A stretch of 59,431 nt of DNA, the filler included, from Xylographa opegraphella (lineage: Eukaryota): NCBI GenBank assembly GCA_022813865.1. It is 10 parts of 10 records of this genome, joined end to end, with 100 filler letters (N's around TTAATTAATTAA, not from the genome) between each part and the next. Parts side by side here need not be neighbours in the genome. Positions count along the whole stretch, not along the records: positions 18,122 to 24,048 come from JALDZX010000224.1; 9 more parts are not named here. One strand, given 5' to 3'. Positions 20,276 through 24,854 of this stretch are shown piece by piece. A model generated the notes under the pieces. The model had not been told where the DNA came from and did no database searches. It was given only the letters and a program-made list of their open reading frames with translations. The first letter of the stretch is position 1. The number at the start of each line of letters is the position of its first letter. Made by a program: the position numbers and the translations under genes.

Positions 20276-22811
20276 TCAGAAGAACTTGCCTTTGATGTCA
20301 GTAGTGCCTTGGGTATAGACCTGCTCGCGATCGGGGTCTAGTCCCTCAACTTCGGCGTGAGTGCCCGTGTAGAAGCTTGGACCGGCTGGAGATGGTCGAT
20401 CGAGGGCTTCGAAACGATGGCCCTTGACCTTGGCTTGGCACCACTGAAAGCAAAGCCGCAGGGCCAAAGCTCCAAAGCCCCACAACAATCCACCAACAGG
20501 TGCCGCGACAAAGGCGCCTACACAGTGTGTAAGCCAGCGTTCTTTCTTGACCTATGCAGAAAGCGAGTGGTGCATTACGTACCGAAGGCACTCCAGTCAT
20601 TCCCGTAAAGTCCATTCTCCAGCAACAACAGGTATGCACCATTTTGCGCGCTTCCATAATAGATGGTTCCAAAAATGAACACCGTCAAAAGCCCCCCCAA
20701 GCCTCCTACAACAACTTCAAATCCTCTCCACCAGTAGCACTGCTCGTTCAAGCCGATAACTAGAACGGGTATAGAACTTGCAGAAACCAGGTCAGAGATT
20801 AAATATATCTGCAGCACGCTAGGGCTTTCCAGTGCCACTACCACTACGGGTACGATGATAAGAACAACGGCAATCCGGATCCACCAGAAATTTAGCTTGT
20901 TTCGGAATAGGTCATTGCTGCCAGTGGAGACCATACCGGATTGCAGACTGTCGAAAGCCGCCGTACTGAGCGAGACCGTCATGACTAGTACGATACCGAC
21001 TACCCATGCAGGGAGCTGTCCGAGCAGCAAGAAAAATGCAATACTTCCCGACTGAGGTGGGTCCCCGGGGTATGCACCAGTCCAGGCAGCGAGCAATCCG
21101 GTGGCACCTACCAAGCCAAGAATCAAGGTTATGGCAACGGTGGCAATGGAAGTTCCAATCAGAAGATCCTGGTCTGTTTTCGAGGCAAACGTACGCATCC
21201 AGAACCCGGAGATAAAAAAGTCGTTGGTGACGACGGCCACCGGGAGAATGTAAATAAGCTGCCATCCAAGAAGCGAGGGTTCGAGAAGTCCAGAGGCAGC
21301 AACGAGCGACGTGTCGATGTGAGTTTCGACACCAACGGTAACGACGGCCAGGATTATAAGACCAACCACCATAAACCCTTGGATATTATCGGTAATAAAA
21401 GAGATTCGGAAGCCTCCCAACGCTAGTGGATGTTGCGACCTGTTAATTACCGCGATCTTGTAGAATCTAAGAGATTGCGATATTGATACATATACTGCTT
21501 ATCACGAGCAAAATGGGAGGAGTTGGAATTGGTGCAAAGAGGAGGTGCAAAATGGGTGGCACTGGGAGTGGTAGCAAGGGATGGCGAGTATCATGACACG
21601 GGTGTAGCTCAACTCACATGTATAAATCGTGGTAACAGCACACTCCACAATAACAGCAGGTAAACCATCAAGTCCGGTCAAGGCGTTGATAATTTGCTGG
21701 AGGGCAGAAAGCTCCGCTACCATGTACAGGAACAGTGTGACCAGCCTGTCAGATCTTAGCACCAGGAACACACGATGTTACCGAAGGATACCAACGTAAG
21801 AAGGCTAAGATAGGAGGCCGTTATGATGCCATATCTTTGCCTGGTCCACTCGGTCAATACAAAACCCTGTGGGCATTTTCGTCGGATGATTGGGCCTAGG
21901 AGTCCGAAAACCATGATTGGAAGCGATGATGACAGGGTATAGACCACGAGACCCTGTACACCGGCTATGGTAGATATCTGTGGGTAAGAGAATAGAATAC
22001 CGGATCCTAGTGCTATAGAGGTACAACATCTGCCGTCAGCAAACCAGGCTAGAAGACAGCGAAGGGTAAAGAAGCGGCAGCACGTTCCCCACGCAAGCAT
22101 TAACTTGATCGAGTGTTTACGGTGCATTCTCAGCTTCGTGGCGAGAATACCCTGCAGATCTCTGTCGCGTTTGGCGAACAGTTGGATACACAGAAAAATC
22201 ATCACCGCTCAGCACCCGTAGTGAAGCCGCGCAGCGCCCGAATCGAAGGTGGCTATGTCCATAGGAAGCAAAGCTCCATAACAAGCTAAGCACCATAGCA
22301 TACTGTGAGCTGGACACAGCAATCCTCGAAGCAGGAAACCGCATTGTTTCAGCTAATACGAACCTGCTCATGATGTTTATTCAGAATCGCACAGTCAAGT
22401 CTGCTTTCGACTTTACACTGTGGCCAGATGTCGGAAGCCTCAAACTGGGTGCTACCGCTTCATTCGACAATCGCTTCTACACTCACCCGATGCAATGAAG
22501 TTCAAGGCGAGAGGAAATGCTACATAGAGAGATCAGTCTCTGTGTGGAAGGACCAGACAAGTTGCGTAAGCGGTAGCTGCTCGACAACAAACACTGCTTT
22601 GCGGATCTAACCCTTCTGCGTGCGATTGCTCGCCAGAAACTCCGACTTTGACTGATGTCTCCAGTGCCATGCAACTATCAGGCCAGTGACTCTGCCCGAT
22701 ATTCGTCAGCCAGCCGTAGTCATCTCGCCGTCACTTCTAGAGGACGAACAGGAAAGCACCATAAGTAAGGTAGATGATGGCATTGGATGCTTGGTAGGAA
22801 GGGATCCCCAT
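20276..22811 (-). CDS. Sodium:solute symporter (SSS) family transporter, NCU01977/DUR31-like, probable thiamine transporter
   Basis: Spliced start MGIPSYQASNAIIYLTYGAFL|VTGLIVAWHWRHQSKSEFLASNRTQK|AFPLALNFIAS|ALGSGILFSYPQIS...FVLTEWTRQRYG...LFLYMVAELSAL...GGFRISFITDNIQG...STAAFDSLQS. Many TM helices; TPP aptamer in intron 3 (22013-22486). Confidence 0.88.
22074..22230 (-). promoter_or_regulatory. TPP (thiamine pyrophosphate) riboswitch, intronic
   Basis: Minus strand reads CAC-UACGGGUGCU-(long P3)-AGC-UGAGAAUGCA-CCGUA-AACA-CUC-GAUC-AAG-UUAAUG-CUU-GCGU-GGG-GAAC-GUG. P1, P2, UGAGA J3/2, P4/P5, the UAAU loop and GCG are all present; a branch site GCUGAC (22035-22040) follows. Confidence 0.95.
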
Positions 22812-23520
22812 AGCGCGAAGGACAGGTAATATTTGCCAAGCTGAAGCAATATTCAACGATAATCTGTGCGTGATTTATTTATCTAAACTCCGTACCCAGG
22901 TAACGGGTCACACCCTAGAAGCGGGCCACCTCAATCGTGATTCCCTCACCAAAACCTACGTTTTTTGAAAAATGATTAAAATTAAAATTGTTGATTATAA
23001 AACGCAGAGTTTCAATTTTATAATAATTTCAATATATATGTTATTGATAAATATTGGCAATATTATATTACAATTTTTATATTAAAATTAAATATATCAT
23101 TGATAAATATTGGCAATATTATATTTTAATTTTTATATTAAAATTAAATATAATATCGATCTTGTTATTGTATAAATCAATCTTTAAATTTATTTTAATT
23201 ATATATATATTATTTATATAATTATTAAAACTCAAGTCAAAGTAAAACAAATTATTTCAATACAGAAAAATTGAATATATAAATAAAATATAAATAGAAA
23301 ATGTATATATTTATTAACAAAAAGAATTCTTGCTTAAAATTTAAAATTTTACAAATCGCTCAAAAAGTATGCTTTTTGCGTATTCAATATATTTAACACG
23401 TTCAGTACGTTCAGTGAAAAAATTTGCTTTTTACATTTTTAGCAAATATTTTATATATTTAAAATACGTTTAAAATACGTTTTTAAAATTGAATTTAGAA
23501 TAACTAGAAATAAAATAAAT

Positions 23521-23711
23521 TGTTAATTGGTAGAAGCATCACTTGCTGGTAGGGATAAAGGAATACCTGAAGGCTAGTTCTATTTATGTATAGCGTAGTT
23601 CAGTACTAGCGTAGGAGGTATATGTCACGTTCACGTGGCCTATACCGAACTTCACCGAATATACGATTACTGTTGCCCCCGCCCTGATCCAAATACACGT
23701 GCCTTTTAATA
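23521..23711. mobile_element. Solo LTR, family B, TSD TAAAT
   Basis: Near-identical to 4687-4877; TAAAT at 23516-23520 and 23712-23716. Confidence 0.88.
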
Positions 23712-23988
23712 TAAATTATAATAAACAATTTTACATCGACGACATCAATTCTTGAAAAGTGTTCAAATAATTATTCGTATTTTACGAATATGTATATTGT
23801 TAAATTTACGTTAATTTCTTTCGCGTTGAAAAATCTGTTAAAGGTTTTAAATTCAGAACATTTAAGTTAATTGAATATTGATTAATAATTAAAAAATCAT
23901 AAAAGTTATATAAATATACTTATTAATAATATTAATATAACTTTTTTATTATAAATTCCTTTTTTAACAGCGAAAATTAAATAGTTTT

Positions 23989-24048
23989 TGTAACGGCGTG
24001 TTACATGGCACCTTAACAAGTGATAGACGGAACGGGACTAAAGCGCGT
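23989..24048. mobile_element. LTR end fragment, family C
   Basis: Identical to 11932-11991. Confidence 0.75.
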
Positions 24049-24148
24049 NNNNNNNNNNNNNNNNNNNNNNNNNNNNNNNNNNNNNNNNNNNNTTAATTAA
24101 TTAANNNNNNNNNNNNNNNNNNNNNNNNNNNNNNNNNNNNNNNNNNNN

Positions 24149-24212
24149 CCGGACACGCTTTAGTCCCGTTCCGTCTATCACTTGTTAAGGTGCCATGTAA
24201 CACGCCGTTACA
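24149..24212. mobile_element. LTR end fragment, family C (inverted)
   Basis: Reverse complement of the family C terminus. Confidence 0.75.
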
Positions 24213-24854
24213 ATCGTGATTTATTTAACGAACTTTTTTAAAATATAAAAAACCTATCGAACGAATTAACAATCAATTTTAAACAAAATTTCGAAACGGA
24301 AACAAACTCGAGTTATTATAATATTTTAGATAGAGAAAATTATAATAAATATAAAAATCTTTATTAGAAATAATTTTAATAATATAAATTAAAAGTATTT
24401 TCGAAGAATTAAAAACATTACGTTATTTATAACGATATAAAAAAAATTTAAACGTTGCACGATTGAAAAATAATAAATATATCAATTTAAAAAAGCATTT
24501 TCGTATTTATAAAATAAAAATTAAAGAATAATTAAAGGTTTTTTGCGAAATAATACCAAATTTAATTTATAAAATAATTACTCGCTGAAAGATTTATTTT
24601 TTAATTAATAAAATAAACGAGCTATTTTTAATATTTTAAATAATCAAATAACACCGAGAATATTATTATTTATAAAATAAACGTTTAACTACAGAATTTA
24701 TAAGCGTTTAATAATATAAAAAATTAAATTATAATTATAAAAAAAATCAGCTATATAATGGCTCGCTAAAATATGTAAACAGAATAAAAAAAGAGAAATA
24801 TAATTCAAGTTAAAATTCAAAATTAAGAACCCGTAATAAATATATTATAATTAC

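Follow-up and report, generated by a model that had tools for sequence, protein, structure and literature searches.

The 59,431-nucleotide (nt) window analysed here, from Xylographa opegraphella, carries a gene for a sodium/solute-symporter-type transporter (SSF) whose third intron contains an aptamer of the thiamine pyrophosphate (TPP) riboswitch class. A first-pass annotation of the sequence had proposed that this intron holds a two-state switch, in which a strand close to the 5' splice site and the 5' strand of aptamer stem P1 compete for the same distant partner. Our analysis suggests that the element is very probably the expression platform of a TPP riboswitch, operating through competition between a long-range helix, alpha-alpha', and P1, as in the gene NCU01977 of Neurospora crassa. 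All positions count along the whole window, and the gene and the intron elements lie on its minus strand throughout (Table 1).

The transporter gene and its riboswitch intron

By homology, the host gene is the filamentous-ascomycete orthologue of the thiamine transporter NCU01977/DUR31. Its 307-amino-acid (aa) exon (21498-20575) has 107 homologues at E<=1e-3, the top ones being 80-81% identical; named homologues, from many Pezizomycotina, are about 70-75% identical and labelled either urea transporter or sodium/solute symporter, and most homologues carry a precomputed PF00474 match. A Pfam scan of three single-exon translations, the 307-aa exon among them, returned no family at E<=0.01, and the identity of the gene therefore rests on the homologues. 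That DUR31/NCU01977 is a thiamine transporter has been demonstrated in Candida (PMC5997356). We mapped the 5' gene structure by tblastn with three homologues (P0004, P0005 and P0012), which places the riboswitch intron directly after a very short third exon. The GT and AG ends of this intron are invariant in an alignment of 45 orthologous introns, described below, and its length lies within the 364-742 nt spanned by the window and the 56 further loci with both splice sites located. A conserved block shortly before the acceptor, UGCUGAC in the window, probably serves as the branch site. The sequence immediately upstream of the gene (about 23000-24400) is a block of very high AT content whose reading frames are of low complexity, and the window as a whole contains paired 44-base runs of N, roughly one pair per 6 kb.

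Table 1. Features of the transporter gene and its riboswitch intron, in window coordinates.
Feature	Position	Strand	Basis or remark
Start codon ATG	22811	-	tblastn homology
Exon 1	22811-22750	-	tblastn homology
Intron 1	22749-22692	-	tblastn homology
Exon 2	22691-22612	-	tblastn homology
Intron 2	22611-22520	-	tblastn homology
Exon 3, 33 nt, ..FPLALNFIAS plus 1 nt; directly upstream of the riboswitch intron	22519-22487	-	tblastn, translation
Riboswitch intron (third coding-region intron), 474 nt, GUGAGU...UAUAG	22486-22013	-	homology, intron alignment
Productive 5' splice site S1, GUGAGU (GTGAGT), after exon 3	22486-22481	-	homology, alignment
alpha, GAAGCGGUAGCAC	22461-22449	-	starts 25 nt into the intron
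In-frame UAG if the intron start is retained (..IAS GECRSDCRMKR-stop)	22454-22452, inside alpha	-	translation
Octamer AGGUUCGU with alternative donor AG/GUUCGU, counterpart of N. crassa S3	22365-22358	-	intron conservation
Hairpin domain between S3 and P1, approximate limits	22354-22231	-	z-scores, geometry; structure conserved, not sequence
GUAUGC (GTATGC), second internal donor proposed by the first-pass annotation	22303-22298	-	predicted hairpin apical loop
P1 5' strand GCGGCUUCAC: distal GCGGC, 2-nt loop, proximal CAC	22230-22221	-	aptamer alignment, intron pair counts
TPP aptamer P1-P5	22229-22068	-	RF00059, 40.1 bits, E 6.9e-07
P3 insertion, 75 nt, unaligned by the Rfam model; P3a absent	22210-22136	-	
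alpha', GUGCUGCCGCUUC: P1 3' strand plus 3-nt extension	22083-22071	-	partner is alpha or the P1 5' strand
Candidate branch site UGCUGAC	22041-22035	-	conserved [GA]CU[GA]AC block, intron alignment
3' splice site AG, 58 nt past the final alpha' base	22014-22013	-	homology, alignment
Exon 4, ..LGSGILFSYPQ...CPQGFVLTEWTRQRYG...	22012-21792	-	tblastn homology

At its gathering threshold (54.3 bits), the Rfam model RF00059 has no match across the whole window. A permissive search of the window yields an alignment of 31.7 bits in which the 5' half is misaligned; restricted to 22055-22245, the search aligns the full length of the model, at the score given in Table 1. The distance to the threshold is explained by the 75-nt insertion in P3 together with the missing P3a. 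The aptamer sequences GCUGAGA, ACCGU and CGAUCAAGUUAAUGCUUGCG are all present, the architecture consists of P1-P2-P3 and P4-P5 with the CUGAGA junction and the sensor-helix sequences, and the window retains every column that is invariant in the 45-intron alignment. Across those introns the P1-P5 structure can pair in 94.6% of cells, compared with 21-40% in slid controls; by stem, the values are 99.6% for P2, 100% for P4/P5, 94.2% for distal P1 and 95.6% for proximal P1. The orthologous N. crassa aptamer binds TPP (PMC3597705), and by analogy the window aptamer probably does so as well. A C/D-box small nucleolar RNA inside the P3 insertion (22162-22212, minus strand, with GUGAUGA) was considered and rejected, the scores obtained (SNORD11, 13.5 bits, E 8.9; sR35, E 0.38) pointing to a chance resemblance.

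A conserved long-range helix in competition with P1

In DNA letters, alpha reads GAAGCGGTAGCAC, alpha' reads GTGCTGCCGCTTC and the 5' strand of P1 reads GCGGCTTCAC; the strings and coordinates of the first-pass annotation proved exact in every case. As it had claimed, alpha and alpha' pair over 13 of 13 positions with a single G-U pair. The two strands are about 365 nt apart, and the alpha core AGCGGUAGC fits the published consensus RGCGGYRRY. The annotation had also described an extended P1 that uses the alpha' strand. This sharing of a strand is real, but the extended stem is not continuous: a 2x2 internal loop divides a GCGGC/GCCGC helix of 5 base pairs (bp) from a CAC/GUG helix of 3 bp. 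Pair probabilities and constrained folds agree that alpha' pairs either with alpha or with the 5' strand of P1, so that the two folds are indeed mutually exclusive.

Folding of the intron favours the long-range partner. The alpha-alpha' helix is present in both the minimum free energy (MFE) and the centroid fold, with pair probabilities of 0.96-1.0 against 0.0 for the pairs of P1, and the isolated duplexes have predicted energies of -23.7 kcal/mol (alpha-alpha') and -13.6 kcal/mol (P1). The full intron reaches -160.7 kcal/mol in its MFE fold and -150.4 kcal/mol when the aptamer is enforced, and once alpha is blocked the best fold takes all 8 P1 pairs and all 5 P2 pairs. From these enforced and blocked folds it follows that the RNA is bistable in silico, with a gap of roughly 10 kcal/mol that ligand binding could plausibly cover.

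How readily could such a helix arise by chance? When the 474-nt intron was shuffled 200 times with its dinucleotides preserved, two shuffles held, at any location, a helix of 13 bp or more containing no more than one G-U pair; none held one that spans at least 200 nt or that joins the first 60 and the last 110 nt. Looser measures do not discriminate: with unlimited G-U pairs, helices of at least 13 bp appear in 97 of 300 shuffles anywhere and in 9 of 300 in the alpha-alpha' geometry, and a loose duplex-energy measure is matched by 13/200 shuffles. Because helices rich in G-U pairs are this common in shuffled sequence, the single-sequence statistic hinges on the near-Watson-Crick quality of the helix. 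We therefore regard the argument from one sequence as moderate and the comparative evidence as decisive.

For the comparison, metagenome contigs were scanned with an alignment of exon 4 peptides; of the 228 stretches that matched, 166 encode a relative, and we retained 80 loci. The window and 56 loci allowed the placing of both splice sites, which gave 45 distinct introns, of which 38 could be anchored on GCGG/CCGC for counting helix lengths. In 73 of the 80 loci a pattern for the aptamer core finds a match, some 75-100 nt upstream of exon 4, and one further locus (L035) has an aptamer that the pattern missed, giving 74/80. Two of the remaining loci (L071 and L073) have almost no upstream sequence and another (L070) is a spliced transcript. 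The last three (L008, L012 and L015) are identical to each other; the aptamer that they have about 260 nt upstream of exon 4 is a decayed one, with CUGAAG for CUGAGA, the P5 loop deleted and ACCGGCGC for ACGGGCGC. They come from either an additional copy of the gene or a lineage in which the switch is being lost.

The helix is conserved, and it varies in the way expected of paired strands. Its contiguous length in the 38 anchored introns ranges from 7 to 16 bp with a mode of 11 bp (7 bp in two introns, 9 bp in one, 10 bp in three, 11 bp in 12, 12 bp in eight, 13 bp in three, 14 bp in one, 15 bp in seven and 16 bp in one). Two outer pairs, which lie outside P1, covary: one is GC in 15 introns, AU in 13 and GU in three, the other GC in 17, AU in 13 and GU in two. 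Covariation in orthologous introns was the check that the first-pass annotation had itself named, and the compensatory GC/AU changes bear the helix out. Extended outwards in register, alpha and alpha' of the same intron pair over a further 2.87 bp on average, compared with 1.82 bp for non-cognate combinations, and none of 5000 permutations gave a value as high. A further outer helix between the flanks (AGCGA/UCGCU in the window, GAGGGG/CCCCUC elsewhere) was considered too but found no support, cognate 30-nt flanks forming duplexes of -8.04 kcal/mol against -7.75 kcal/mol for non-cognate ones, with 1034 of 5000 permutations as low; beyond alpha-alpha', only the in-register extension covaries. 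The annotation had lastly suggested that the 3' flank of alpha could pair with P2/P3. This pairing (UAGCACCC with GGGUGCUG, 8 bp including one U-G) is confined to the window (1/38 introns): one other intron has 7 bp, the other 36 have at most 6 bp, and the registers differ, and we have dropped the suggestion.

These results leave little room for the idea that the helix is incidental, or that the riboswitch has decayed and no longer regulates. Decay does happen, as the copy shared by L008, L012 and L015 illustrates, but the window keeps the invariant aptamer columns, the alpha consensus and the S3 octamer discussed below, and an incidental helix sits badly with the 0/200 outcome of the shuffle controls; we consider either possibility very improbable.

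The internal donor S3 and the segment before P1

Two internal donors had been proposed for the window, GUUCGU (starting at 22363) and GUAUGC (22303), and they fare very differently. The first belongs to the octamer AGGUUCGU. Of the 45 distinct introns, 44 have exactly one copy of it, the sole exception (L023) having GUAAGU at the aligned place. The N. crassa donor S3 (nts 495-496 in supplementary Fig. S8), compared by eye, lies within the same octamer, and its use was confirmed by sequencing of reverse transcription PCR product III (PMC3597705). GUAUGC, on the other hand, is not conserved and falls into a stretch that cannot be aligned, so we do not retain it as a donor.

Use of S3 can be seen directly in a relative. 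When the contig L070 (1-700) is compared with its genomic relative L057 (560-1560), introns 1 and 2 are gone and so, exactly, is the stretch from CAG/GUUCGU to the acceptor; L070 is a processed transcript, from another species, of the non-productive S3 isoform in which the S1-to-S3 part is kept. A second contig, L080 (1-700), has a 5' leader, exons 1-3 joined and the entire 441-nt riboswitch intron in place, which suggests a retention isoform, unless this lineage has lost introns 1 and 2. Whereas S3 use is thus observed in relatives, S3 is in the window a strongly supported candidate donor. Reading on from exon 3 into the intron meets an in-frame UAG inside alpha, and isoforms that keep the start of the intron would for this reason be truncated. 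Intron 1 of this gene, too, has by homology a GUUCGU donor (22749-22744, minus strand), and if that intron is mapped correctly the hexamer would be a constitutive donor in this organism. A weak decoy donor would need much less conservation than the S3 octamer shows.

One way of bringing S3 under ligand control would be masking, as in NMT1: without ligand, UUCGUA of the donor would pair with UACGGG of J1/2-P2 and be hidden, to be exposed once TPP folds P2. The MFE fold of the window has all six pairs, and at every position 41 or more of the 45 introns have bases that can pair. Yet the masking helix enters the MFE fold of just 3/44 introns and has a mean probability of 0.05 (0.18 in the window), and a 6-bp match with two G-U pairs to a conserved aptamer is, by our estimate, about what chance would give. 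Both strands are almost invariant, and the helix therefore lacks covariation. On balance we consider masking of S3 unlikely.

The segment between S3 and P1 is strongly structured. Its mean z is -4.46, with 43 of 44 introns below -2, compared with -0.36 and 2/44 for the control segment from alpha to S3; the window's own value, -1.96, is the weakest of the 44. MFE predictions place a hairpin here, with a median span of 98 nt and 37 pairs and with median distances of 11 nt between the octamer and its start and 3 nt between its end and the CAC of P1, while its sequence cannot be aligned between clades. The paper text consulted mentions neither the invariance of S3 nor this hairpin, either of which could be shown in the drawn figures of Li & Breaker (PMC3597705), and a literature search linking the TPP riboswitch with GUUCGU found no paper.

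These features raise a possible extension of the competition between alpha-alpha' and P1. The hairpin, by shortening the distance between S3 and the 5' strand of P1, and a TPP-stabilised P1 could together place S3 next to the branch site and acceptor, just as alpha-alpha' would place S1, so that the ligand would select which helix closes a loop, and hence which donor sits near the acceptor, beyond merely releasing S1. The single octamer of 44 of the 45 introns, shared with N. crassa S3, fits such an arrangement, as do the structured segment, the short median gaps on either side of the hairpin and the aptamer-enforced fold of the window, which sets the 3' base of the hairpin against the 5' strand of P1. 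Experiments in N. crassa speak against it, because a GU-to-GA mutant of S3 kept regulation, and deletions Del 4 and Del 6, apparently removing S2 and S3, were still robustly regulated (PMC3597705). Moreover, the window's z-score is low in magnitude, the hairpin offers no column-wise covariation because it cannot be aligned across clades, and the spacings come from MFE predictions, with the proximity effect itself being a conjecture. We therefore put the extension forward tentatively and with some doubt.

A probable splicing switch of the NCU01977 type

The long-distance pairing invoked by the first-pass annotation is experimentally established for N. crassa NCU01977 (Li & Breaker 2013, PMC3597705). 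There, a GC-rich alpha near S1 pairs with alpha', the 3' shoulder of P1; deletions together with disruptive and compensatory mutants showed that alpha-alpha' strongly increases the use of S1 and raises expression, and that TPP sequesters alpha' in P1, which leads to use of S2-S4 or to retention, all with premature stops (PMC3597705). The published description asks for a core RGCGGYRRY, at least 11 contiguous pairs, less than 60 nt from S1 to alpha and less than 60 nt from alpha' to the acceptor (PMC3597705); the corresponding values in the window are AGCGGUAGC, 13 pairs, 25 nt and 58 nt. A catalogue covering many fungi lists this as 'Type II' regulation of genes of the urea-transporter family (Mukherjee et al. 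2018, PMC5882874), and the window agrees with this class in its host gene, an NCU01977/DUR31 orthologue, and in the place of its aptamer, which sits at the 3' end of the long intron that separates coding exons 3 and 4. From the match to both the Li & Breaker model and the catalogued type it follows that the proposed two-state mechanism is the published one, on an orthologue; with the helix conserved and its changes compensatory, the first-pass reading is a correct rediscovery of a known mechanism in another orthologue.

Applied to X. opegraphella, the mechanism would run as follows. The strand alpha' can take one of two partners, alpha or the 5' strand of P1. At low TPP, the 13-bp alpha-alpha' helix would form 25 nt after S1, enclosing the aptamer and the internal donor or donors in a loop of about 360 nt and bringing S1 close to the branch site and acceptor, so that the whole intron would be removed and the transporter made. 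With TPP bound, alpha' would be held in P1 by GCGGC..CAC (22230-22221), alpha would be freed and the advantage of S1 lost; splicing would then move to AG/GUUCGU (22363), or the intron would be retained, and either product would meet the UAG at 22454-22452 and yield a truncated protein. That alpha-alpha' is causal and that the switch responds to TPP was demonstrated in N. crassa; for X. opegraphella itself we infer TPP binding, the splicing outcome and, as the operative effect, proximity as against looping out.

The last of these distinctions deserves comment. Li & Breaker themselves raise the alternative that alpha-alpha' acts mainly by enclosing the internal donors as poor substrates, the proximity of S1 not being the main effect (PMC3597705). 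In the window, both candidate internal donors do lie inside the loop closed by the helix. The conserved short spacings (below 60 nt; 25 and 58 nt in the window) are, however, expected under proximity and not required by looping out. Our analysis separates neither effect from the other, and we see looping out as possible though the less probable account of how the helix works.

Several observations weigh against competition between alpha-alpha' and P1 as the mechanism, or at least limit how much it explains. The aptamer score of 40.1 bits is below the RF00059 gathering score of 54.3 bits; none of 20 orthologous loci reaches that score either, and the low score is therefore a property of the class. 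Seven of the 45 introns could not be anchored, their helices being interrupted, weaker or divergent, and one of them (L064) seemingly has no alpha'. In the MAFFT alignment, 13-14 of 45 rows are unpaired at the outer positions. Covariation is confined to two or three outer positions, with the core mostly invariant; the ten core pairs hardly vary and are therefore uninformative either way. Neither the shuffles nor the permutations take into account how the sequences are related. At 474 nt, the intron falls short of the 550-650 nt described as frequent by Li & Breaker. Finally, deletion of alpha in N. crassa left a residual response to TPP (PMC3597705), so alpha-alpha' is not the whole mechanism. 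Taken with the evidence above, competition between alpha-alpha' and P1 nevertheless remains, in our view, the highly probable basis of the element.

Compared in detail, the window and N. crassa NCU01977 share an orthologous host gene, an aptamer at the 3' end of a coding-region intron, the alpha consensus near S1, an alpha' on the 3' shoulder of P1 with less than 60 nt to the acceptor, and a helix no shorter than 11 bp. The sequence AG/GUUCGU is donor S3 in N. crassa and a candidate donor in the window, and the premature stops of the N. crassa alternative products are predicted for the window as well. They differ in the separation of alpha and alpha' (about 365 nt here, about 530 nt there) and in intron length (474 versus 684 nt). 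The register in the window also runs one pair deeper into proximal P1 (p=+9, C-G, a pair seen in just 2/38 introns), and the N. crassa S2 and S4 sequences have no obvious counterpart in the window. Whereas the N. crassa switch was shown by experiment, the window switch is predicted from its sequence.

Other TPP riboswitches are more distant. The DUR31 riboswitch of Candida parapsilosis (Donovan et al. 2018, PMC5997356) regulates the same thiamine-transporter gene family; by its description, its intron has a non-consensus second donor, GTTGGA, and the passages of that paper on which we draw do not describe alpha-alpha'. In fungal NMT1 and THI4 (Cheah et al. 2007, summarised in PMC3597705 and PMC5997356), an intronic aptamer likewise decides which of two 5' splice sites is used, and high TPP turns the switch OFF. 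Those introns lie in the 5' untranslated region, P4-P5 mask the proximal donor without TPP, and the outcome is upstream open reading frame interference (PMC3597705, PMC5997356), whereas in the window the 3' strand of P1 would pair with a distal element and activate the far donor. An NMT1/THI4-like Type I switch was accordingly rejected for the window, where the intron lies inside the coding region and the weak J1/2-P2 match is the only pairing found between the internal donor and the aptamer. Bacterial TPP riboswitch platforms also use the 3' strand of P1 as the switching strand, shared with an alternative helix; there the platform is a local terminator/antiterminator or a stem that sequesters the ribosome-binding site, and here it would be a splicing helix about 365 nt away.

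In itself, one more orthologue of a mechanism that is proven in N. crassa and catalogued across fungi changes little, although the register of the switch was recovered correctly by the first-pass annotation without tools. Of more practical consequence is that pipelines relying on the RF00059 gathering threshold will leave transporter genes of this kind looking unregulated. For the mechanism, the S3 octamer and the hairpin that follows it may help to make sense of the residual response to TPP, for which Li & Breaker had no explanation.

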